Made by a program: the position numbers and the translations under genes. This document shows positions 4,576 to 60,552 of a DNA stretch of 64,000 bases, one piece after another (within the stretch, counting starts at the first letter, position 1; each line of letters begins with the position of its first letter). The notes under the pieces were generated by a model. It was given only the letters and a program-made list of their open reading frames with translations. It did no database searches and was not told the DNA's origin. This DNA is from an uncultured Mycoplasmatota bacterium. Its GTDB lineage: Bacteria > Bacillota_I > Bacilli_A > RF39 > UBA660. Location of the stretch: the NCBI GenBank assembly GCA_946497955.1, contig CAMMMH010000001.1:5147-69146 (forward strand). Direction: 5' to 3'.

Positions 4576-5724
4576 TCATACTTTTTTAATTTTTTTATCT
4601 CGAAGCTTATTTTCAATATTAACACGTTGAACTATGGCTAGAGAAACCATTAAACATAAAGTAAAACTACCACCATAACTCAAGAAAGGTAAAGGTACTC
4701 CTGTCATAGGCATAAGACCAAATAAGCCCATTAAATTGACTACAACATGTAAAAAGATATAGACGGCAACACCATAACAAAGTAAAGCTCCTCTATTTGT
4801 ATAACTATCTCTTCCTATCTTTAATATTCTATATAGGAGGTAGAGATAAGCAAGGATTATTATAATTCCAACAACAAGTCCTAACTCTTCAACAGTAACA
4901 GCAAAGATAAAGTCTGTATAAGGATATGGTAAGTACAAATACTTCTGAGTACTATTACCAAGCCCTACACCAGTAAGACCACCATTATTAATAGAAATAT
5001 AACCATTACATACTTGATTACCTGTATCTAGTAGTCTATCACATGGTCTTGTAAAGTTAAATCTTTCTATCTGTCTTGCTTGTAAAAAACTTCCTCCTGT
5101 CATAATAAGTACCGCTCCTACTACTAAACACATTCCAAAGAAAAGAGCGATAACTTTAAATTTAATAAGTCTTGAAACAGGAGATGAGAAAAATATTATA
5201 CCTGTAAGTCCTGCAAAGATAATAGCAGTTCCTAAGTCAGGTTGTAACATAATTAAAAATGTTATAATTACTCCAACTATTAAAGGAATAATAGCGATAA
5301 AGAAGTTATTTAAACGTTTTTCATGGACTTCATAAAACCTTGCCATAAAAACTATCATAATTACTTTAATAAATTCACTAGGTTGTAAAGTAAAAGGACC
5401 AATAGGAATCCAACTAACAGCATAGTTTGTCGCTTTACCATAAATAAGTAAAAGAATAAGAACTGCTACAAAGGCAATTAAAAGAATATTTGACATCATT
5501 CCATAGAACTTAGTATTAAACTTAACCATAATTATACAAAAGATAAAACTAACTAATAAAAATAATCCCTGTCTAAAGAAATAATCATAAGGACTTCCTC
5601 CATTCATGTATGATGTAACATTACTAGCAGAGAAAATCATTACTAGTCCTAACACAAAAAGAATTAGAGTTAGAATAAATAATGGTTTATCTATATTTTT
5701 AATTATATCTTTAAGCTTAGTCAT
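4576..5724 (-). CDS. SEDS family peptidoglycan glycosyltransferase (FtsW/RodA/SpoVE)
   Basis: 10-TM protein with conserved SEDS motifs (GGSF..., PLPFLSYGGS). Confidence 0.8.
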   Translation of the reverse strand: MTKLKDIIKNIDKPLFILTLILFVLGLVMIFSASNVTSYMNGGSPYDYFFRQGLFLLVSFIFCIIMVKFNTKFYGMMSNILLIAFVAVLILLLIYGKATNYAVSWIPIGPFTLQPSEFIKVIMIVFMARFYEVHEKRLNNFFIAIIPLIVGVIITFLIMLQPDLGTAIIFAGLTGIIFFSSPVSRLIKFKVIALFFGMCLVVGAVLIMTGGSFLQARQIERFNFTRPCDRLLDTGNQVCNGYISINNGGLTGVGLGNSTQKYLYLPYPYTDFIFAVTVEELGLVVGIIIILAYLYLLYRILKIGRDSYTNRGALLCYGVAVYIFLHVVVNLMGLFGLMPMTGVPLPFLSYGGSFTLCLMVSLAIVQRVNIENKLRDKKIKKV

Positions 5725-8475: not shown

Positions 8476-8503
8476 ATGTTAGGAGATGTTTCCTAACATT
8501 TTT
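8476..8503. terminator. bidirectional rho-independent terminator
   Basis: atgttaggagatgtttcctaacat hairpin flanked by A-run and T-run between convergent genes. Confidence 0.7.
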
Positions 8504-9383
8504 ATTTATTCTTTTCCATCATTTTCTTAGCCATCTTTAGGATAAATTTATTAGTAGCAGGTACCTTTTCTCTATCTTTCTTATAACCTAGTGTTTTTAA
8601 AGCGTTATCAGCATAATCAACACATAAATCAACTCCTGAGATAAAACTTGCCATACTTGACCCTAAAAAGACAATAGGTCCAGCCATTTCTTCACTTTCT
8701 GCAAGACGATGAGCAACTCCAGTTTCTGCTAAAAGGGCTTCTTCGCCACCAGCCATCTTTTCAAATTCATCCTTCATACCTGTATCAGTAGAGCCTGGCA
8801 TTACATTATTAACTCTAATACCCTGTTTTCCTAGTTTAATAGAGGCTTCACAGGCATACTCTGATAAACATCTTTTAGAATACATGTATGCAAAAGTTGC
8901 AGGTGATATTTTGGCAAGAGGTTCTACTACACTCTCTATTTCTTCCCAAGTACTTGCATTTACTACCTTGCTCTGTTCTTTTCTAAACTCTTTCCAGTTA
9001 AGTCCTGCCGTACTTGTTACATAGACAATACTACCACCTTTACTCATTCTCTTAGTTAAATATTCTTCTGTAATATAGAAGTTAGCAGTGTAATTACAGT
9101 TAAATGTTGTCATATAATCTGTTTTAGATCCTGACAAGCCTGCTACTCCAAAGAAACAGTCAATATGTTCTGGAAGTTTACTGAATAAATTATCTATATC
9201 TTCTTTTTTAGATAAATCACATTTTATAAAGTCCTTAATCCCCTTAACATCACATGGATTTAAGTCAACAGCATAACAACTAGCTCCTAAATCTACTAGC
9301 ATTTCTAATGTTGCCTTACCCATACCACTACTGGCTCCTGTTACTACACAAACTTTATCCTTATAACCAAAATAATCTTTCAT
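8502..9383 (-). CDS. SDR family oxidoreductase
   Basis: VVTGASSGMGKA Rossmann motif and YMYSK (YxxxK) catalytic motif. Confidence 0.75.
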   Translation of the reverse strand: MKDYFGYKDKVCVVTGASSGMGKATLEMLVDLGASCYAVDLNPCDVKGIKDFIKCDLSKKEDIDNLFSKLPEHIDCFFGVAGLSGSKTDYMTTFNCNYTANFYITEEYLTKRMSKGGSIVYVTSTAGLNWKEFRKEQSKVVNASTWEEIESVVEPLAKISPATFAYMYSKRCLSEYACEASIKLGKQGIRVNNVMPGSTDTGMKDEFEKMAGGEEALLAETGVAHRLAESEEMAGPIVFLGSSMASFISGVDLCVDYADNALKTLGYKKDREKVPATNKFILKMAKKMMEKNK

Positions 9384-9483
9384 ATAAATCCTACCTTTCT
9401 AACTTAAGTATAGAAAAACAAAAGAAAAAAGTAAATAATTTAGAGAAAATTAGATACTTTTTTACAGTTATATGATTTACCGG

Positions 9484-9577
9484 TAGAATAATTTATTACT
9501 CGCGGGCCATCTACAAGCGAGATAATCTGCAGCGTAGAATAATTTATTACTCGCGACCATCTACAAGCGAGATAATT
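9484..9577. repeat. tandem pair of ~44-nt repeats (period 51) of the same family as the type III antitoxin repeats at 53857-53949
   Basis: Two units gtagaATaATTTATTAcTCGCg..ccaTCTACAAGCGAgataat. Each has the internal 5-nt inverted pair gtaga/tctac. The motifs ATTTATTA.TCGC and AAGCGA are shared with the toxN-linked repeats. Confidence 0.6.
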
Positions 9578-9706
9578 TCCGTAAAAAGAAAATCATCTTA
9601 TATATTATATAAAGTTTCCCTCATCTAATACATTTTAATTATATCATAAATGGTACTAGCGTGTAAAGATGTTTTTGTAATTATAGTTTTTCTTCTTTAG
9701 TTTATA

Positions 9707-10423
9707 TTATCTTTTTAATAATAATTTCTTTTCTAAAGAATAATCTATAATAGAATCAATATGTGACTGAGTAGTATCAAATACAGGAATATCTAAATCT
9801 TTTTGACTAATTAACATTTCTATTTCTGTACACCCTAATATTACACCTTTAATATTGCTTTGTTTTTTCATATTATTTATTACTTCAATATAATAGTCTC
9901 TTGAGCTGTCATTAATTTCACCTTTACATAGTTCATCAAATATTATTCTATCTATTTCATTAATTTCATTTTCACTATTTGGGATACTAACCGTTAATCC
10001 GTTTTGTTTTAACCTATCTTTTAAAAAGTCTTCTCTCATTGTATAGCCAGTACCTAAAAGTCCAACATTTAATACTTCATTTTCCTTGCATTTATCAGCA
10101 ACACAGTCAGCAATATGAATTAGAGGAATATTTATTTTACTTTCTATATAATTTGCTAATTTATGCATTGTATTAGTAGCAATAACTATATAATCAGCAC
10201 CAGCATTTTCTAAAGTTTTAGCAATAGAAGCTAGTTCTACACCAATTTTATCCCATTCATTGTTTAACATTAGTTTTCTAATATCTTCAAAATTCACATT
10301 ATAAATAATCATTTTAGCACAATTTAAGCCACCACATATCGCATTAACTCCATTATTAATTCTTTCATAATAATGAATTGATGATTCGTAACTCATTCCA
10401 CCAATAAGACCAATTGTTTTCAT
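9707..10423 (-). CDS. aspartate/glutamate racemase family protein
   Basis: MKTIGLIGGMS N-terminus and GCTE active-site Cys motif. Confidence 0.75.
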   Translation of the reverse strand: MKTIGLIGGMSYESSIHYYERINNGVNAICGGLNCAKMIIYNVNFEDIRKLMLNNEWDKIGVELASIAKTLENAGADYIVIATNTMHKLANYIESKINIPLIHIADCVADKCKENEVLNVGLLGTGYTMREDFLKDRLKQNGLTVSIPNSENEINEIDRIIFDELCKGEINDSSRDYYIEVINNMKKQSNIKGVILGCTEIEMLISQKDLDIPVFDTTQSHIDSIIDYSLEKKLLLKR

Positions 10424-10692: not shown

Positions 10693-11127
10693 TTATAAAT
10701 TTGTAATTGTATCTTTTGTTTTATTCTTAATATTTAAACTTATAACTAATTTTATTAATTTATCCAACATTTCATCACTTAAACGACCAATGACTTTATA
10801 ATCAATTTTATCTTTCTTAAAATAGAATAAATCATCTGCTCTAATATAACCACTTTTGTTGTTAACATTTCTACCTTTGATTTTGTTAGGTGTGATTTCT
10901 AAATTACTTTTAATTTTTAACTTTCTTTTCTTATGGTTTTCATTATGAAAACTACACATAATATTAGAAATAAAATCATATGAGTAACTCTCTATTATCC
11001 CTGCTTCGTCACTAACTACCACAAAAGAGTGTTTTGGAACAACAATACCATTATTATCTTTAAACTCTTTGACGACAATTATGTCTCCAACTCTACACAT
11101 AGATACCCTCCTTTCTTTAATATTCAC
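10693..11127 (-). CDS. PemK/MazF-fold protein (putative solitary endoribonuclease toxin-like)
   Basis: RVGDIIVV N-terminal motif and C-terminal RLSDEMLDKLIKLV resemble MazF/EndoA (KRGDV...LDDEMMDKVDEAL); no MazE-like gene upstream. Confidence 0.4.
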   Translation of the reverse strand: MNIKERRVSMCRVGDIIVVKEFKDNNGIVVPKHSFVVVSDEAGIIESYSYDFISNIMCSFHNENHKKRKLKIKSNLEITPNKIKGRNVNNKSGYIRADDLFYFKKDKIDYKVIGRLSDEMLDKLIKLVISLNIKNKTKDTITNL

Positions 11128-11237: not shown

Positions 11238-13604
11238 TTACTTATCTCTTAATTCTACATCTAATGTAGTAGTTACTTTCTTAATAATATTATCAAAGAC
11301 ATTCATTACTTCTTCATCTGTTAAAGTCCTATTACTATCCATAAATGTTAAGTTATAAGCGATAGATTTCTTATCATTATCAAGTTTTTCATAAACATCA
11401 AAGACATTTATTTCACTAAGTAGTCTGCCACCAGCTTTCTTAATAACTGCCTCTACTTCACTTGATGACATAGACTTAGGTACAATGAAAGCAACATCTT
11501 TAACTATTGTTGGGTACTTAGAAGTTTCTTTATATTTTAATGGTTTAACTTTCGCCATTAAAGCATTTAAAGATAACTCACAAACATACACTTCATCTTT
11601 ACAAGTTTTAGGATGAACTCTACCCATAATACCAATTCTTTTACGGTCAAGAAGGATATCTGCAGATACTCCTGGATGTAAATCCTTAACACCACTCTTA
11701 ACAAAACTATAACGGTTTTTAAAGCCTAAGTAATCAAGAATACTTTCAACAATTCCTTTCATCAAGTAAAAATCTACTTTCATTGAACCTTTCCAAGGAT
11801 TAGTAACATAGTTACCTTTCATAAGAAATGCTATCTTAGACTCTTCATTATATGATTTATCATAAGTTTTAGCAATCTCGTAGATATTTATATCTTCTAC
11901 CTTACGAGCTTTATTATAGTTATAAGTATTTAATAAAGATGGTATTAAACTTGTTCTAATAACACTCTTATCGATACTCATAGGATTAGGTAAAGTAATT
12001 CTCTCTTTTTCTTCATAATCAAAGCTAGCAGCCATAGATGGTGATACTAAAGTATAAGTCTTAACTTCATTAAGTCCTAAACTTCTAAGTCTTTTAGAAA
12101 TAGCTTTACGATATTTAACATCACCTACATACTCTCCTCTTTTTAATTCTATCTTAGGAAGAGTTCCTTTGATATTTTGATAACCATAAAGTCTACCTAT
12201 CTCTTCTGCTATATCATTAACATTAGATTCAATATCAAGTCTTCTACTAGGAATAGTTACACTAAACTTACCATCTTTAATAGTATAAGGGAAGTCTAAT
12301 CTTTCAAGTTCATGTTTCATAATATCTTCATCTATTTTAATTCCTAGCATTTTATCTACATCTATGGGATAGAACTCTACTACTTTAGGAGTTTTATCTA
12401 TTTTATCGTGTTTAACAGTACCAGATAAAATAGTAGCATTAGCATATTTTTCTAGTAAATGGCAGGCTCTATCAAGAGCATAATTAGTATATTCATAACT
12501 AAGTCCTTTACCATATCTTATACTAGCTTCACTTCTAAGGTCTAAGTGAGATGCCGTATATCTAATACTAACAGGGTCAAAGATAGCTGCTTCTATCAAG
12601 ATATTTTTAGTAGTAGGCTCAACTTCTGTATTAGCACCTCCCATAACACCAGCGATACAAACAGGTTTTTCTCCATCAGTAATAATGATATCACTATTTC
12701 TTAGAACTCTTTCTTTATCATCTAAAGTAGTAATCTCTTCTCCTTCTTTTGCATCTCTAACTAGTATTTTATCACCTAAAGTATCTTTATCAAAGAAATG
12801 AAGTGGTTGACCAAATTCTAACATAACATAATTAGATATATCTACAACATTATTTATTGGTCTCATACCAACAGAAAGTAATCTTCTTTTAATAAAGTCA
12901 GGTGACTCTTTAATTTCTACATTAGTAACCATTTTCGCTAAGTAATAAGGACACTTAGTAGTTTCTACTTCAAGTTTAAAATGATTATTAATATTATCTT
13001 TATCTTCGCTATAAGATAAATCTGGTAGTGTTACTTTTCTATTTAATATTGCAGAGATTTCATAAGCAAAACCGATATGATAGTAACAATCATTATTACG
13101 ATGTTTATGGATATCTAACTCATATAATGTATCTTCAAGTCCTAAATAAACAAGAGGGTCTTTTCCTACAGGAGCGTTGCCTTTTAACTCTTCAATACCT
13201 TTAGCATAGGTCTCATCATTTTTCTCTTCAAGACCAAGTTCATATAAAGCACAAATCATACCATTAGACTCTACTCCTCTAATCTTACTGGCTTTAATAG
13301 CAAAGTCACCTGGAAGCACTGCTCCTGGTAAGGCTACTATTACTTTAAGTCCTTCACGAACATTAGGAGCCCCACAGACTATTTGTTGTAGTTCGTCTTT
13401 TCCTACATCAACCATACATAAATGTAAATGGTCACTATTAGGATGGTCTACACAAGATTTAACTTCTCCAATAACTAGATTATCTATCTTATTAGTAATA
13501 ACTTTCTCAACATTAATACCAGCTTCTGTAATCTTAACTGCTAACTTTTCTAAATCTTGGTCAGATATATCTATATAATCTTTTACCCACTCTAAATTAA
13601 TCAT
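11238..13604 (-). CDS. pheT: phenylalanine--tRNA ligase beta subunit
   Basis: 788 aa, tRNA-binding N-domain, B3/B4 and FDX-ACB C-domain arrangement; overlaps pheS. Confidence 0.9.
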   Translation of the reverse strand: MINLEWVKDYIDISDQDLEKLAVKITEAGINVEKVITNKIDNLVIGEVKSCVDHPNSDHLHLCMVDVGKDELQQIVCGAPNVREGLKVIVALPGAVLPGDFAIKASKIRGVESNGMICALYELGLEEKNDETYAKGIEELKGNAPVGKDPLVYLGLEDTLYELDIHKHRNNDCYYHIGFAYEISAILNRKVTLPDLSYSEDKDNINNHFKLEVETTKCPYYLAKMVTNVEIKESPDFIKRRLLSVGMRPINNVVDISNYVMLEFGQPLHFFDKDTLGDKILVRDAKEGEEITTLDDKERVLRNSDIIITDGEKPVCIAGVMGGANTEVEPTTKNILIEAAIFDPVSIRYTASHLDLRSEASIRYGKGLSYEYTNYALDRACHLLEKYANATILSGTVKHDKIDKTPKVVEFYPIDVDKMLGIKIDEDIMKHELERLDFPYTIKDGKFSVTIPSRRLDIESNVNDIAEEIGRLYGYQNIKGTLPKIELKRGEYVGDVKYRKAISKRLRSLGLNEVKTYTLVSPSMAASFDYEEKERITLPNPMSIDKSVIRTSLIPSLLNTYNYNKARKVEDINIYEIAKTYDKSYNEESKIAFLMKGNYVTNPWKGSMKVDFYLMKGIVESILDYLGFKNRYSFVKSGVKDLHPGVSADILLDRKRIGIMGRVHPKTCKDEVYVCELSLNALMAKVKPLKYKETSKYPTIVKDVAFIVPKSMSSSEVEAVIKKAGGRLLSEINVFDVYEKLDNDKKSIAYNLTFMDSNRTLTDEEVMNVFDNIIKKVTTTLDVELRDK

Positions 13605-15299: not shown

Positions 15300-15500
15300 A
15301 TAACTTAAGGGAGTCTACAAGAAGTATACTCTGTACCACCTTAATTTATAGTTATTGTAACTAACTCATTATCTTAACGCGATCTTAACGCCTATAATTT
15401 TGTTATAGGAACTCCTAAGATGAATTCATAAACTATTCTTATCTATTTCCACCAACCATAGACTCTCTTTAAAGACATCGTTTACTACTACTTCTTAATC
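15300..15500 (-). promoter_or_regulatory. putative T-box leader (tRNA-sensing riboswitch) upstream of HAD-pheS-pheT
   Basis: Minus-strand AAATTAAGGTGGTACAGAG (15348-15330) matches the T-box consensus AATTAGGGTGGTACCGCG. An AGAGAG stem-I element and a TTC-containing loop lie upstream. A weak hairpin and T-rich tract follow before the RBS. Confidence 0.45.
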
Positions 15501-15557
15501 ATAGTCATTTCATGAATTACTATATCATATTTAAAAGTTAATTGTAAATAGAAAATA

Positions 15558-47618: not shown

Positions 47619-47650
47619 ATTATATATAGTGTTTATTATATTTTGTTGTC

Positions 47651-47698
47651 CACTTACTTGTTCACTTACTTGTTCACTTACTTGTTCACTTACTTGTT
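47651..47698. repeat. four perfect tandem copies of 12-bp cacttacttgtt (plus degenerate flanks) immediately upstream of the small HTH gene
   Basis: Directly visible; reads as (QVSE)n in-frame with the downstream ORF on the minus strand. Confidence 0.9.
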
Positions 47699-47713
47699 CA
47701 CTAACACTTCTTA

Positions 47714-53238: not shown

Positions 53239-53706
53239 CTATTTACTTTCTTTTAACATTTTTTCCACTAAACTATCTATATTAGCAAAGAATAAATTAG
53301 TTCCTCTCTTTTTCAAACCTAACATATTTTTAAACATACTTTTGATTTCTGTTTGTAAATCAGTAGAAACCTTTAAAGGTACTCCATCAACAGTATGTAC
53401 ATGGTCAATATATTTTTCTATAGTAGGAAAAGCATTTTGCAATAAAATAGCAGAATCTCTACCAGCAATTTTTCTAATTATTATCGTATTACAAAAACCA
53501 TATTTTTTTATTTTCTTATCAATTATTTTTTGATACTTTTTCACTTTAGAACTTATAGGAATAAACCATAGTATATCTTTATCTTTAATTGTAAAATATG
53601 TTGGTCGTTTCTTTCCTCTTTCATGATTTTGCATCAAATTTTCATCATTAACAACATCAAAGTATTCATCTTTAATATGATATAAATATCCAGTTTTAAC
53701 TTTCAT
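53239..53706 (-). CDS. type III toxin-antitoxin toxin, ToxN/AbiQ family endoribonuclease
   Basis: YLYHIKDEYF...VVNDEN...KKRPTYFTI...FIPISSKVKKYQ matches the ToxN/AbiQ pattern (Y.I..Y...L..D..V..N...RPY...Y.PLSS.K.K.Q). Likely start is the ATG at 53706 behind a GGGGTG RBS; the tracked start 53790 lies in the leader. Confidence 0.65.
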   Translation of the reverse strand: MKVKTGYLYHIKDEYFDVVNDENLMQNHERGKKRPTYFTIKDKDILWFIPISSKVKKYQKIIDKKIKKYGFCNTIIIRKIAGRDSAILLQNAFPTIEKYIDHVHTVDGVPLKVSTDLQTEIKSMFKNMLGLKKRGTNLFFANIDSLVEKMLKESK

Positions 53707-53820
53707 TTTACAAACACCCCCAAACAACAAATATGACATGTAATTTAAATATACTAAATTATACTTATGTTCGTCAATATATAAATTCATTTTTTAACAA
53801 TTTAATATACAAAACAAAAA

Positions 53821-53840
53821 CTTCACCATAAATGATGAAG
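53821..53840 (-). terminator. hairpin terminator between the antitoxin repeats and the toxin gene
   Basis: cttcaccataaatgatgaag near-palindrome followed on the minus strand by TTTTTGTTTTG; an identical hairpin recurs at 54058-54077. Confidence 0.6.
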
Positions 53841-53856
53841 TTTTTAACATTTTCAA

Positions 53857-53949
53857 CCAGGATCATTTATTAGTCGCACCACCTGGAAGCGAAAAACATT
53901 GTCGACTGGAATCATTTATTAATCGCACCATCCAGAAGCGAAAAACATT
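53857..53949 (-). ncRNA. type III antitoxin RNA: two tandem 44-nt repeats (period 49 nt)
   Basis: R1 ccaggATCATTTATTAgTCGCACCAcctggAAGCGAAAAACATT and R2 ctggaATCATTTATTAaTCGCACCAtccagAAGCGAAAAACATT. The 5-nt inverted pairs differ between copies but stay complementary (ccagg/cctgg versus ctgga/tccag). The repeats sit between a promoter and a terminator directly upstream of the toxN-like gene. Confidence 0.65.
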
Positions 53950-53979: not shown

Positions 53980-54008
53980 AATATACTATCTTTTTCTAAA
54001 AATGTCAA
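53980..54008 (-). promoter_or_regulatory. sigma-A type promoter driving the antitoxin-toxin transcript
   Basis: Minus-strand TTGACA (54008-54003), 17-nt spacer, TATATT (53985-53980). Confidence 0.55.
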
Positions 54009-54057
54009 CTAGTATATAATAATAGTATATACATATCTTAAAAAAATATAATAAAAA

Positions 54058-54077
54058 CTTCACCATAAATGATGAAG
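54058..54077 (-). terminator. terminator of the upstream gene (second copy of the same hairpin)
   Basis: cttcaccataaatgatgaag followed by a T-run on the minus strand, directly after the stop at 54096. Confidence 0.55.
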
Positions 54078-54095
54078 CTTATAGTTCAAAAAAAT

Positions 54096-54896
54096 CTAAT
54101 TATTCTTTTTCTTTTTTATTAAAGTTGGTCCTTCTTCATGAAAAGCTTCAGTTACTTCTTGTCCATTTAATAGTTCTTCTTTAAATTTCTCTAAAGCTTG
54201 CTTCTGCTCACTAATATCTAATTCTGATAAAGATGAAGGCTTACTTTCTTCTTTTTTCTCTATATGTAAATTACTGTCACTCTTTAAAGCTTTTATAAAC
54301 TCTTCTTCACCACCATATTGTTCTACACCACTAGTTACAAATTCCTTCCAAGAATCCATTACTATCTTTTTTTGCTCTTCTTCAGTTAATCTAGATAATG
54401 TACCTGTCGCCTTTAATACAGTAACATCATCATAAGTATCATTAAATTTATAAAAAATCTTTCCTTTTTCATTCTTATTTTTTATCACAAAAGTATGAAC
54501 ATCTTTCTTTTTACTCTCTGATTTAATTTGAATTTTGATAGCATTAAGACCAGTAGGCTCTTTTAAATACTCTTTTTTCTCTTCATCAGTCATTTCTTCT
54601 AAAACACCAGCTACATCTAATTGACTTAAAAACATTGGTCTAGCATTATTATACTTATTTACTTCATCTAATACATAGAAAATATTATATACTATAACTA
54701 ACAATGAAATAAGAGTTTTCTTTGAAGAATCAGGGTTAAAGTGTTCAGACAATTCATTTACTCTCTTTAAATCACACTTATATCCTGCATCGGCAATATC
54801 TTTAAAAACTCTTAATGTATATGATATTTGTATACCAAAACTTGCTACTACAGTTCCTAACCAACATATAATTAAAGCTTCCATATTAATTATCAT
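54096..54896 (-). CDS. membrane-anchored hypothetical protein
   Basis: N-terminal TM, charged coiled-coil C-terminus. Confidence 0.4.
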   Translation of the reverse strand: MIINMEALIICWLGTVVASFGIQISYTLRVFKDIADAGYKCDLKRVNELSEHFNPDSSKKTLISLLVIVYNIFYVLDEVNKYNNARPMFLSQLDVAGVLEEMTDEEKKEYLKEPTGLNAIKIQIKSESKKKDVHTFVIKNKNEKGKIFYKFNDTYDDVTVLKATGTLSRLTEEEQKKIVMDSWKEFVTSGVEQYGGEEEFIKALKSDSNLHIEKKEESKPSSLSELDISEQKQALEKFKEELLNGQEVTEAFHEEGPTLIKKKKNN

Positions 54897-54969: not shown

Positions 54970-55368
54970 TTAAAGCTTAATGTCTATTATATTATCAAAA
55001 GATATTATAGTATTATCTATTAAAATTATTCTTTTATACACTTCATCAACTACCTTAACATTACCTGTTATAGTCTTATAATATCCCCCTCTTTTCTTAT
55101 TATCTCTAACAAAGTAAGTAATTGTTACTTTAGGTCTTAGTTTAATATCATTTTTTATAAGACACAACTTCTCGTTTAGCATTAATTTTATCCCCTCATC
55201 TAATTCTATTTTTATAGAGGTTTCTCTTGCAACTTCTTTTATCTTCTCATCATACCCTGTTAAAGCTGAAAAAGGTGCGAACTGAGCTGACCTATTTTGT
55301 AAAGACATGGGCTTCCTTATTTTAGATACGTGGTGAGGCATATTTATAATATCATCATACTTATTCAT
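54970..55368 (-). CDS. YolD-like protein (accessory partner of Y-family polymerase)
   Basis: MPHHVSKIRKPMSLQNRSAQFAPFSALTGYDE matches the YolD-like family; overlaps the polymerase gene stop. Confidence 0.65.
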   Translation of the reverse strand: MNKYDDIINMPHHVSKIRKPMSLQNRSAQFAPFSALTGYDEKIKEVARETSIKIELDEGIKLMLNEKLCLIKNDIKLRPKVTITYFVRDNKKRGGYYKTITGNVKVVDEVYKRIILIDNTIISFDNIIDIKL

Positions 55369-56848
55369 GATGCCCTCCTATCTGCCTATTTCTATCCCTT
55401 GTTGTTGCCCCATCTTCTAAATCCATACCTTTTAAAATAGCATTTTTCCCATACTTCTCTTTTATCTTTAACATAGCATTTTGAAGATTATTTTCTTCCT
55501 TTAAAACTTCTCTATCATAATCTAACTTATTATTTTCATCATCTAGACTAGAAAATAAATCTAACTGTCTATATCTAACTTTACCTTTTTCTTCCTCTTC
55601 ACTTGCTAGCTTTGTAGCAGCCATAGTAACTCTTCTAACAGATAGTTTAGGATTTATAATCCTATCATATAGTTTAATCATCATTTCTGTAATTATTTTA
55701 GATGATGATGTTTTATAATCTAAATTAATAGTACCATGAGCGTGTTTGGGTATAGCCCGTCCATAATAATCTATTGTAACACTCCCATTATAATTATCAG
55801 TAACATTTTCTATATCATAACCAATAGTTAATACTAACTGTTCTGCTACTAATTTTTTAGAGACGAGGTCTAAAGCTAAAAGCTCAGCCATTTCTCTTAC
55901 TATTAACTTAGCTTTGTCATATGAGTATGGACTTTGTAAAACTTGACCACTACTGATACTTTTAGCAAGTGGTTTATAGTTTTTAATAGATTCTATTGTA
56001 CAAGGCTCATAACCCCAAGCATGGTCTATTAGAAGTTCAGCATTGACTCCAAATAATTTATATAACAAGTCTTCATTATTAATAGAACATCTTGCCACAT
56101 CACCCATTGTATACATATCATACTTCTCTAATCTTTTAGAAATACCCTTACCTACTCGCCAAATATCTGTAATAGGCACATGATGCCATAACATTTTTCT
56201 ATAAGACATTTCATTAAGTTCGGCAATTCTTACTCCAAACTTATTAGGTATGATATGTTTTGCTACTACATCCATAGCAACTTTTGCAAGAAATAAGTTA
56301 GTACCAATTCCAGCAGTCGCTGTAATACCTGTTGTATTATAAACATCTTTAATTATTTTTGTAATTAAGTCTTTAGGAGATAGTTTATAGTACTTTAAGT
56401 AATTAGTTATATCCATAAAGACTTCATCGATGGAATAAACAAATATATCTTCTTTAGCAATGTACTTTAAATAGATATTATATATTTTAGCTGAATAATC
56501 AATATAATGAGCCATTCTAGGAGGAGCGATAATTAAATCAAGTTCTTTAGTCTTATCTTTCTTTAAGATATCATCATTAACTGCTTTACCACTAAACTTT
56601 TTATAACCATTAGCTTTTCTTCTTATCATATTTATTTCTTTCACTTTACTTAAAACTTCAAAAAGTCTTGCTCTTCCTCCTATACCATACTGCTTCAACG
56701 CTGGACTTACTGCTAAACATATCGTCTTTTCTGTCCTAGATTTATCGGCAACAACAAGATTAGTTTTCAAAGGATTAAGTCCTCTTTCAACACATTCTAC
56801 CGATGCATAAAAACTCTTTAAATCAATACAGCAATATATCTTTTCCAT
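55361..56848 (-). CDS. Y-family DNA polymerase (UvrX/YqjW/DinB-like translesion polymerase)
   Basis: CIDLKSFYASVECVERGL N-terminal palm motif, little-finger domain. Confidence 0.85.
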   Translation of the reverse strand: MEKIYCCIDLKSFYASVECVERGLNPLKTNLVVADKSRTEKTICLAVSPALKQYGIGGRARLFEVLSKVKEINMIRRKANGYKKFSGKAVNDDILKKDKTKELDLIIAPPRMAHYIDYSAKIYNIYLKYIAKEDIFVYSIDEVFMDITNYLKYYKLSPKDLITKIIKDVYNTTGITATAGIGTNLFLAKVAMDVVAKHIIPNKFGVRIAELNEMSYRKMLWHHVPITDIWRVGKGISKRLEKYDMYTMGDVARCSINNEDLLYKLFGVNAELLIDHAWGYEPCTIESIKNYKPLAKSISSGQVLQSPYSYDKAKLIVREMAELLALDLVSKKLVAEQLVLTIGYDIENVTDNYNGSVTIDYYGRAIPKHAHGTINLDYKTSSSKIITEMMIKLYDRIINPKLSVRRVTMAATKLASEEEEKGKVRYRQLDLFSSLDDENNKLDYDREVLKEENNLQNAMLKIKEKYGKNAILKGMDLEDGATTRDRNRQIGGHHE

Positions 56849-58348: not shown

Positions 58349-58390
58349 CTAACATTATTATATACAAAGTTTAAAACATTATCAACTCTT

Positions 58391-58434
58391 TCGACCACTT
58401 TTCGACCACTTTTCGACCACTTTTCAGCAACTTT
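58391..58434. repeat. three perfect and one degenerate 11-bp tandem repeats (tcgaccacttt) in the promoter region of the AlbA_2 gene
   Basis: Directly visible; 11-bp periodicity is iteron-like. Confidence 0.85.
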
Positions 58435-60465: not shown

Positions 60466-60552
60466 TGGTGCAGGAAACGAGACTCGAACTCGCACGATTA
60501 ACTAATCACTACCCCCTCAAAGTAGTGCGTCTACCTATTCCGCCATTCCTGC
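60466..60552 (-). tRNA. tRNA-Leu (anticodon GAG), type II with long variable arm
   Basis: Hand-folded cloverleaf: acceptor stem GCAGGAA/TTCCTGC, anticodon stem CTACT/GGTAG, loop TTGAGGG, T-arm GCGAG-TTCGAGT-CTCGT, encoded CCA end. Confidence 0.8.

Follow-up and report, generated by a model that had tools for sequence, protein, structure and literature searches.

The 64,000-nt window analysed here, that is, the whole stretch of DNA (positions 5,147 to 69,146 of contig CAMMMH010000001.1, assembly GCA_946497955.1, from an uncultured Mycoplasmatota bacterium), contains two short arrays of a common tandem repeat. One array lies at 53.8 kb, directly ahead of cptN, the toxin gene of a type III toxin-antitoxin (TA) system of the CptIN family. 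The other, at 9478-9578, lies ahead of an SDR-family oxidoreductase gene and 43.7 kb from the sole CptN-like coding sequence in the window (53239-53706). We call the second array the orphan array, and it is the subject of this report. The features of the two loci are listed below, where S1 and S2 are stems, L1 to L3 are loops, E is the expectation value, and L followed by three digits denotes a related locus in another genome or contig.

Orphan locus
9638..9667, minus strand: orphan-array promoter; -35 TTTACA, 18-nt spacer, extended -10 TG-n-TATAAT; 11/12 consensus match
9579..9637, minus strand: predicted transcribed leader from the promoter to unit 1, kept across lineages; its motif AAUGUAUUAGAUGAGGGnAACUUnAUAUAAUAUA is common with the leader of the intact cptIN of L150
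9529..9578, minus strand: orphan CptI-type unit 1, 50 nt; pattern match; covariance model 57.3 bits, E 2e-13
Parts of unit 1, minus strand: 5' tail AAAUUAUC; S1 UCGC 9570-9567; L1 UU; S2 GUAGA 9564-9560; L3 UGGUC; S1' GCGA 9554-9551; L2 GUAAUAAAUUAU 9550-9539; S2' UCUAC 9538-9534; 3' tail GCUGC
9478..9528, minus strand: orphan CptI-type unit 2, 51 nt; covariance model 51.7 bits, E 7e-12
Parts of unit 2, minus strand: 5' tail AGAUUAUC; S1 9520-9517; S2 9514-9510; L3 UGGCCC; S1' 9503-9500; L2 9499-9488; S2' 9487-9483; 3' junction CGGUA
9414..9463, minus strand: A+U-rich hairpin AAAAAAGUA..UAAUUU-loop-AAAUUA..UACUUUUUU with a U tract; candidate weak terminator or attenuator in the gap between the array and the SDR gene
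9407..9435, minus strand: possible second promoter for the SDR gene, TTTACT-17-TATACT; 9/12 consensus match, weak, a suggestion only
8502..9383, minus strand: SDR-family oxidoreductase gene; Pfam adh_short (E 2e-21) and adh_short_C2; starts 107 nt after the array

Resident cptIN locus
53980..54008, minus strand: promoter, TTGACA-17-TATATT; 11/12 consensus match
53852..53949, minus strand: toxin-linked cptI array of two 49-nt units; S2 CUGGA/UCCAG and CCAGG/CCUGG; 5' tails AAUGUUUU; 64.0 and 69.7 bits
53815..53846, minus strand: intrinsic terminator separating the cptI array from cptN; 14 pairs with a U tract behind them (terminator scan)
53239..53706, minus strand: cptN toxin gene, 155 aa; NCBIfam NF047359 CptIN, E 4.7e-48, 162.8 bits against a cutoff of 90

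The orphan array consists of two head-to-tail units with their cores 51 nt apart. Its RNA sense is that of the minus strand, because the 53.8-kb locus shows on that strand the canonical type III order of promoter, two units, terminator and cptN. A promoter-like site on the plus strand (9461-9489) was considered as evidence for the opposite direction and was rejected; the toxin-linked arrays all lie on the same strand as, and upstream of, their own cptN. Read on the plus strand, the 64 kb contain the pattern ATTTATTA-N-TCGC...AAGCGA at four positions and no more (9491-9520, 9542-9570, 53865-53892 and 53914-53941), versus no match in 100 dinucleotide-preserving shuffles. All conserved blocks of the orphan units match those of the units at 53852-53949, while the covarying 5-bp stem differs: both orphan units carry the inverted 5-mers GTAGA/TCTAC, and the toxin-linked units carry CCAGG/CCTGG and CTGGA/TCCAG. 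The sequence-only reading had proposed two tandem units with a 51-nt period, blocks shared with the toxin-linked repeats, a third covarying stem, a position in the 5' region of an SDR gene and no toxin gene within reach, and each of these points is borne out here.

The probability that this resemblance is a chance product of A+T-rich sequence is close to nil. The genome is 27% G+C (27.4% in the window), and Tandem Repeats Finder (score 30) listed neither array, both of which would suit such an account. Against it stand the four pattern matches where the shuffles gave none, the covariance-model E values of the two orphan units, the presence of orthologous copies in other genomes, and the composition of the shared blocks themselves: what is conserved is not low-complexity AT sequence but the invariant, G+C-rich UCGC/GCGA blocks together with a stem that covaries. 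Rfam holds no family that matches either array, at gathering threshold or at E<=10, and the deposited phage genomes give no blastn match to the orphan region. Near-perfect short tandem repeats are found elsewhere in the window, namely 4.8 copies of the 12-mer TTGTTCACTTAC at 47646-47702 (97% matches) and 3.4 copies of the 11-mer TTTCGACCACT at 58389-58425 (100%).

Related units were collected with a search pattern made of two adjacent S1'-L2 cores, which matched 18 contigs of the viral collection and at least 119 loci of species-representative genomes; the family counts given below for the species-representative genomes rest on the latter, as the matches listed. Two earlier patterns had returned only two viral contigs (a strict single-unit pattern) or mostly chance matches (a loose 16-base pattern). 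Four false positives that failed the pseudoknot parse (L024, L134, L155 and L164) were removed. The listed genome matches come mostly from low-G+C gut metagenome-assembled genomes (MAGs) labelled uncultured Bacilli, Tenericutes or Clostridium sp., and, of 193 distinct units, 175 parse as a pseudoknot, with 64 different S2 stems. A covariance model was built from a MAFFT alignment of 90 distinct related units. Across this alignment, 91.9% of the cells pair, versus 74% after column shuffles (none of 500 gets as high as the real alignment) and 31-47% with the partners slid. Two-sided changes are seen at all five S2 pairs, and at the outer S1 pair 54 units have C-G, 14 have G-C and 6 have U-A. Both stems are complementary in both orphan units (S1 UCGC/GCGA, S2 GUAGA/UCUAC). 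As predicted from sequence and covariation, each unit is an H-type pseudoknot with S1 UCGC/GCGA, a variable 5-bp S2 and a long A-rich loop, UAAUAAAU.

The covariance-model search of the 64-kb window, a check of the kind that the sequence-only reading had called for, returns exactly four units, all on the minus strand, with scores of 69.7, 64.0, 57.3 and 51.7 bits (E 1e-16 to 7e-12), and the next match in the window has an E of 0.46. Three of the four window units, namely both orphan units and one toxin-linked unit, are among the 90 training sequences, so their scores are partly obtained by construction; the absence of further copies in the window is the independent result of the search. Judged by its pattern, its fold and its covariation, the orphan array almost certainly encodes an RNA of the CptI family.

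A divergent branch of the family is found in Anoxybacillus/Paranoxybacillus (L172, L183 and L147), with the core GUCGC...GCGAC-UAAUAA[A/G]U and a different 5' tail, GAAAACUUG. L172 and L183 carry a 168-aa open reading frame (ORF) about 70 nt downstream of the array that is undetected by tblastn with the window CptN; tail and toxin appear to change together in this branch.

The resident locus provides the reference for the family in this genome. The product of 53239-53706 matches the NCBIfam equivalog NF047359, 'type III toxin-antitoxin system CptIN family toxin', and it also matches chain A of PDB entry 4RMO, the crystallised CptN of Eubacterium rectale, over residues 5-138 (E 1.1e-19). The toxin had initially been labelled ToxN. 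Because the 155-aa protein has no Pfam-A family at E<=0.01 and no PADLOC match, that label is unsupported, and it was dropped in favour of CptN, the identity given by NCBIfam and PDB. Each unit of the resident array is laid out as 5' tail AAUGUUUU, S1 UCGC, L1 UU, a 5-nt S2, L3 UGGU, S1' GCGA, L2 N-UAAUAAAU-NAU, S2' and a 3' tail.

Several observations were made around the resident locus. A terminator hairpin, CUUCAUCAUUUAUGGUGAAG with a U tract, occurs twice on the minus strand, at 53815-53846 and 54055-54080, and the second copy comes directly after the stop codon of ORF 54096-54896 and shortly before the cptI promoter. The two copies, which bracket the cptI promoter and array, may have been left by a past tandem duplication of the cassette. 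The locus adjoins a YolD-like ORF (54970-55368, minus strand; a weak Pfam match below the gathering score), which overlaps by 8 nt the end of an upstream 495-aa ORF (55361-56848), a Y-family (UmuC-like) polymerase by eye. The closest cptIN relative of the resident locus is L010, with a toxin 73% identical, and its contig has been classified as viral. The neighbourhood of the resident cptIN may thus be mobile-element-like. Farther along, at 60469-60552 (minus strand), is an 84-nt tRNA whose variable arm is long.

We next consider the surroundings of the orphan array. The promoter at 9638-9667 is, by consensus match alone, the best promoter match within 9300-9800, and it is kept in L001-L003, L006, L141, L198 and L150, even where the upstream gene differs. 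The gene on this side of the window array encodes an Asp/Glu racemase (9707-10423, minus strand). Junctions that resemble unit starts flank both orphan units (ACGGA-AAUUAUC, GCAG-AUUAUC and CGGUA-AAUCAUA, with the hyphen at the boundary). On the downstream side, the SDR gene occupies the slot held by cptN in canonical loci, and the same gene also follows the orphan array in L001-L003, L006, L141, L198, L150 and L251. A tblastn search of the whole window with 74 CptN queries (E<1) finds neither cptN nor a remnant of it near 9.5 kb. The terminator scan finds no G+C terminator after the orphan array, and the A+U-rich hairpin at 9414-9463 fails the G+C criteria of the scan. This hairpin is present in both the minimum free energy and the centroid folds, the 99-nt stretch is marginally more stable than shuffles (z -1.83), and the apical loop is the only part that varies between species. 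The array would be transcribed from its own promoter, and because the weak A+U hairpin alone follows it, part of this transcription would be expected to read on into the SDR gene in the toxin's usual slot.

This arrangement brings in a first rival explanation, namely that the array was domesticated after toxin loss as the promoter and 5' leader of the SDR gene, the pseudoknots serving as a structured and possibly stabilising 5' end with no toxin role. In every lineage with the array, the array lies directly upstream of the SDR gene, at 107-108 nt and in the same orientation, and this placement holds whether the racemase gene, orf58 or another gene is upstream. The replacement of the canonical G+C terminator by a weak A+U hairpin points the same way. 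On the other side, the SDR gene has a possible promoter of its own (9407-9435). Taken with the conservation data given below, we regard a purely SDR-directed role as somewhat unlikely, though it is the strongest of the rivals.

The origin of the orphan array can be read from related loci. Strains with an identical SDR protein share promoter and array, with two units in L001 and L003 and a single unit in L002; L006, also with an identical SDR protein, has two units in a different upstream context and with 5' tails AUGUUC. The same orphan array precedes the SDR gene in two other species (L141 and L198; SDR 94% identical). In L150, whose SDR is 82% identical to that of the window, the order is pheT, orf167, a promoter with two units, terminator and cptN, orf58, a promoter and leader with one unit, and then the SDR gene. 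The intact cassette of L150 has the promoter TTTACA-N17-TGATATAAT, two GUAGA/UCUAC units, a G+C terminator and a 162-aa cptN. Its orphan is a second copy of the cptIN promoter and leader with one unit, in which S1' GUGA keeps the pairing as a wobble. Because L150 retains both, the element upstream of the SDR gene can be recognised as a duplicate of cptI from the neighbouring cptIN. The GUAGA/UCUAC unit type stands ahead of an intact cptN in L150, L250 and L254; the metagenome contigs L249, L250, L252 and L254 have GUAGA-type arrays in canonical cptIN loci with tails AUGUUC, and the metagenome locus L251 is one more SDR orphan.

The steps of such a history recur in the family. There are tandem cptIN-cptIN duplicates (L188, L211 and L245), cptIN cassettes with a lone unit or array behind them (L138, L170, L189 and L150), and arrays beside a frameshifted or partial cptN (L159, L149 and L154) or beside a cptN that is full-length by tblastn but disrupted or missed (L145 and L173). 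Because these three kinds of locus recur, the route by which an orphan arises is shown. The syntenic locus of L150, with an intact cptIN of the same stem type beside the orphan unit, directly supports the earlier suggestion of a remnant of a lost TA system. On this comparative evidence, the orphan array very probably arose through duplication of cptI from a cptIN system between pheT and the SDR gene, with subsequent loss of the toxin in the lineage of the window.

In the window, the slot that holds orf167 and cptIN in L150, between pheT and orf58, is taken by a 144-aa ORF (10693-11127, minus strand), which is kept in L141, L198 and L001. By eye this ORF had seemed to be MazF/PemK-like; searches of Pfam, PADLOC, NCBIfam and PDB gave nothing significant for it, and no toxin claim is made. 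A T-box leader (15304-15511, minus strand; 103.6 bits) lies upstream of pheT (11238-13604).

To place the orphan array among its relatives, we sorted the listed arrays by what follows them, with the four false positives removed and with toxin-less meaning no cptN within about 1.2 kb downstream. The classes among the matches listed are as follows.

Intact cptN behind the array: 70
Full-length cptN by tblastn, either disrupted or missed: 4
cptN present as a partial remnant: 2
Toxin-less in the sense just given: 30 of the 106 evaluable arrays
Array at the edge of the stored stretch, undecided: 15

Toxin-less arrays elsewhere lie 50-190 nt ahead of unrelated genes. The genes behind toxin-less arrays include MutL, NERD-HRDC, NUDIX, peptidase S51, histidine phosphatase, desulfoferrodoxin and a Schlafen/AlbA_2 protein, and the spacing of 50-190 nt ahead of MutL, NUDIX, desulfoferrodoxin and peptidase S51 adds to the case for a leader role. 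No new toxin family was found behind the toxin-less arrays, the downstream proteins being unrelated to one another save for the SDR cluster and the L145/L173 pair, and many of them being ordinary enzymes. Short 'cptN remnants' that tblastn reported after many toxin-less arrays were rejected, because they match the terminator and leader region that an over-extended query ORF had translated, and not toxin coding sequence. Most orphan arrays elsewhere keep a promoter: again among the matches listed, 22 of 35 match 10/12 or better, compared with 73 of 83 for linked arrays and 9 of 118 for random windows.

The same census bears on the idea, raised by the sequence-only reading, of a more general structured RNA or regulatory element, taken here as a riboswitch or other cis-regulator found near a toxin gene in this window by coincidence. 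The occurrence of a tandem pseudoknot in 5' untranslated positions, ahead of several genes with nothing in common, would be in keeping with it. However, 70 of the 106 evaluable arrays among the matches listed precede an intact cptN and six more a disrupted or fragmentary one, the toxin-less loci keep the promoter-array-terminator layout of cptI and several also keep the post-array cptIN leader sequence, and the genes downstream of toxin-less arrays share no family. No competing Rfam family matches, and the fold class and topology are those of CptI. This idea is therefore very improbable. A different view of the toxin-less arrays is that they are a recurrent, selected feature of low-G+C gut Bacilli, acting as decoys against CptN from phages and other mobile elements or coupling a gene in the toxin's slot (here the SDR gene, elsewhere MutL, NUDIX or desulfoferrodoxin) to leader processing by CptN, in which case the window orphan, with its invariant core and changed tails, would be a specificity variant and not a decaying copy. 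We consider this unlikely on present grounds.

Toxin-less arrays also occur on viral contigs. The phage contig L009 (IMGVR_UViG_3300031521_000065) carries at 2700-2800 a two-unit CptI-like array with the stems GCCGA/UCGGU and ACCCA/UGGGU and without cptN, which adjoins a cluster of 14 tRNA genes and an ORF that is GIY-YIG-like by eye. By analogy, this array is a candidate phage-borne antitoxin mimic, the CptI counterpart of pseudo-ToxI. The viral contig L027 has three units and no detectable cptN.

The reading we favour, with a probability of about 0.5, is that the orphan array is a cptI gene without a toxin, from the CptIN type III TA family, and that it still works as an expressed CptI-like RNA. 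The pattern of retention speaks for this. The array is found before the SDR gene in at least four lineages, represented by the window with the strains of its species, L141, L198 and L150, and unit 2 is the one that no lineage has lost; it is also the unit kept in L002 and L150, which have only one. The third-codon identity of the SDR gene between the window and L150, L141 and L198 is 0.63, 0.76 and 0.77, respectively, and the region from the promoter to the SDR start is conserved far better than these positions. Within the unit common to six lineages, the core (S1, L1, S2, UGG, S1', L2 and S2') has one variable site in 35, and the pairing is preserved, versus 9 of 19 in the 5' tail, L3 and 3' junction (Fisher p 1.4e-4, with lineages that are not independent). 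In addition, all four genomes with an SDR orphan have an intact cptIN: 43.7 kb away in the window, at L156 for L141 and at L211 for L198 (each pair in one MAG), and adjacent in L150.

If CptN recognises the orphan RNA, it would cut the transcript at the unit junctions, as in canonical loci, and the released pseudoknots of about 50 nt would bind and inactivate the toxin. The orphan array would then be an extra, toxin-independent supply of antitoxin against the resident CptN or against CptN from phages and other mobile elements. Whether the orphan RNA can act on the resident toxin depends on the stem, the core and the tails. Different S2 stems occur within one array in 36 of the 83 toxin-linked arrays among the matches listed, each array having one toxin, so the different stem of the orphan is neither a barrier nor a sign of a different partner. 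The pseudoknot core is wholly common to the orphan and resident arrays.

Several findings weigh against this reading, and most of them concern the tails and the toxin. An AUG is present in the 5' tail of 92% of the toxin-linked units in the matches listed, and AUGUU in 87%, but the orphan tails AAUUAUC and GAUUAUC lack the AUG(U)U motif that the closest toxin-linked relatives have as AUGUUC. The AUUAU tail is confined to the SDR orphans and is found in no linked array sampled. Identity is only 54% between the resident CptN and the L150-type CptN, the cognate toxin of GUAGA-type arrays. In the E. rectale complex (4RMO), the 5' and 3' tails of CptI form two protein interfaces, and non-cognate CptI/CptN pairs, whose toxins are 35-44% identical, do not cross-protect (PMC4627078). 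Because the core is shared but the tails and CptN have diverged, neutralisation of the resident toxin in trans, with the orphan RNA still a CptN ligand, is tentative, and we place it slightly below even odds. Further points concern the array itself. The copy number of the orphan varies between one and two units, and one locus (L004) combines an identical SDR protein with a wholly different sequence upstream, in which the array is absent. Among the matches listed, the pseudoknot is broken in 7 of 80 toxin-less units, compared with none of 167 linked units (p 3e-4). Finally, the whole 5' region of the SDR gene is conserved, beyond the units alone, which fits a role in SDR expression equally well.

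In L004 (1-535), the upstream sequence differs over about 310 nt and has no homology to the promoter, array or leader until about 25 nt before the start codon, with a divergent gene upstream; this region has no Rfam match. L004 is either a real recombinant or an assembly chimera.

Some of these points would be expected if the array were a neutral relic of a duplicated or decayed cptIN cassette, not yet eroded and with no present function. Toxin loss can be demonstrated in the family (L159, L149 and L154; L145 and L173), as can tandem duplication (L188, L211 and L245), broken units are commoner in toxin-less than in linked arrays, the tail motif is lost in both window units, and the copy number is polymorphic. 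However, the array is retained in at least four lineages at an SDR third-codon identity of 0.63-0.77 with a single, pairing-preserving substitution in 35 core positions, the promoter is intact, and neutral decay would not spare the core while altering the tails. A relic of this kind is accordingly rather improbable, though more probable than a chance match or a general structured RNA. For the SDR leader, the high conservation from the -35 to the ATG relative to SDR third-codon positions and the drift of the toxin-contacting tails are both favourable, whereas a passive leader leaves unexplained an invariant core (S1, L1, S2 and L2) beside a varying tail and L3, and one contig (L004) has the same SDR gene without the array. 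A leader role is also compatible with antitoxin activity. Among the roles for which the array may have been kept, that of an orphan antitoxin for cross-protection or anti-addiction, as the sequence-only reading had proposed, is the most plausible candidate.

The orphan array is traceable to a cptIN duplication, is kept before the same housekeeping gene in several species and has a near-invariant core. If CptN still binds this RNA and those of the other toxin-less arrays, they would parallel, on the RNA side, both phage pseudo-ToxI and orphan protein antitoxins, and they would bear on plasmid and phage exclusion, on cross-talk between paralogues and on the extent to which CptI specificity drifts. 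If CptN does not bind them, they would show how a strong antitoxin promoter and leader are turned into the expression signal of a metabolic gene. Because type III TA systems are found and defined via the toxin gene, arrays without a toxin are invisible to standard annotation. We found no description of chromosomal orphan type III RNA antitoxin arrays in the literature searched, the coverage of which is incomplete. The CptI RNA family is already known; what is new is its orphaned, conserved state.

The CptIN family was defined by Blower et al. 2012 (PMC3401426), and its best-described member is relevant to both arrays. As described by Rao et al. 2015 (PMC4627078; PDB 4RMO), the 45-nt CptI of E. 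rectale folds into an H-type pseudoknot whose L1 is a single base and whose A-rich L2 (AUAUAAAUG) is long, and one repeat suffices for antitoxicity. The orphan array is like E. rectale CptI in its tandem repeats of about 45-50 nt behind a promoter, its predicted H-type pseudoknot units, its very short L1, its long A-rich L2 with AUAAAU and its single-stranded 5' and 3' tails, although its units are longer, at 50-51 nt compared with 45 nt. Behind the 53.8-kb array, as in CptIN, come a terminator and a toxin gene whose product matches both 4RMO and the NCBIfam CptIN model. In contrast, the orphan array is followed by an SDR gene and not by cptN, and a weak A+U hairpin replaces the G+C terminator. 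The S1 and loop of the window units (UCGC/GCGA with UAAUAAAU) mark a distinct CptI subfamily, found mostly in MAGs of low-G+C gut Bacilli and on some phage contigs, and the orphan 5' tail departs from the consensus of its own subfamily.

In the ToxIN systems of Pectobacterium atrosepticum and Bacillus thuringiensis, ToxI repeats and a terminator precede an endoribonuclease toxin, which processes the repeats into monomers that inhibit it. ToxIN and CptIN share this repeat-terminator-toxin logic, but the window toxin has no Pfam ToxN match, and ToxI is a triplex-rich pseudoknot of 34-36 nt in a heterohexamer, whereas CptI forms a heterotetramer. The pseudo-ToxI of phage PhiTE is an antitoxin mimic through which the phage escapes ToxIN by neutralisation in trans (PMC5086642). 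Like pseudo-ToxI, the orphan array is a toxin-less copy of type III antitoxin repeats; unlike it, the array is chromosomal, lies beside housekeeping genes (pheST and SDR) and is inherited across species. Orphan protein antitoxins of types II and IV are described as anti-addiction or counter-defence factors (PMC7192599 and PMC10790755; phage DarG-like, PMC11825919). The orphan array resembles them as a toxin-less antitoxin gene, for which protection against related toxins on mobile elements is proposed, with the difference that the orphan type II and IV antitoxins are proteins and the window orphan is an RNA.

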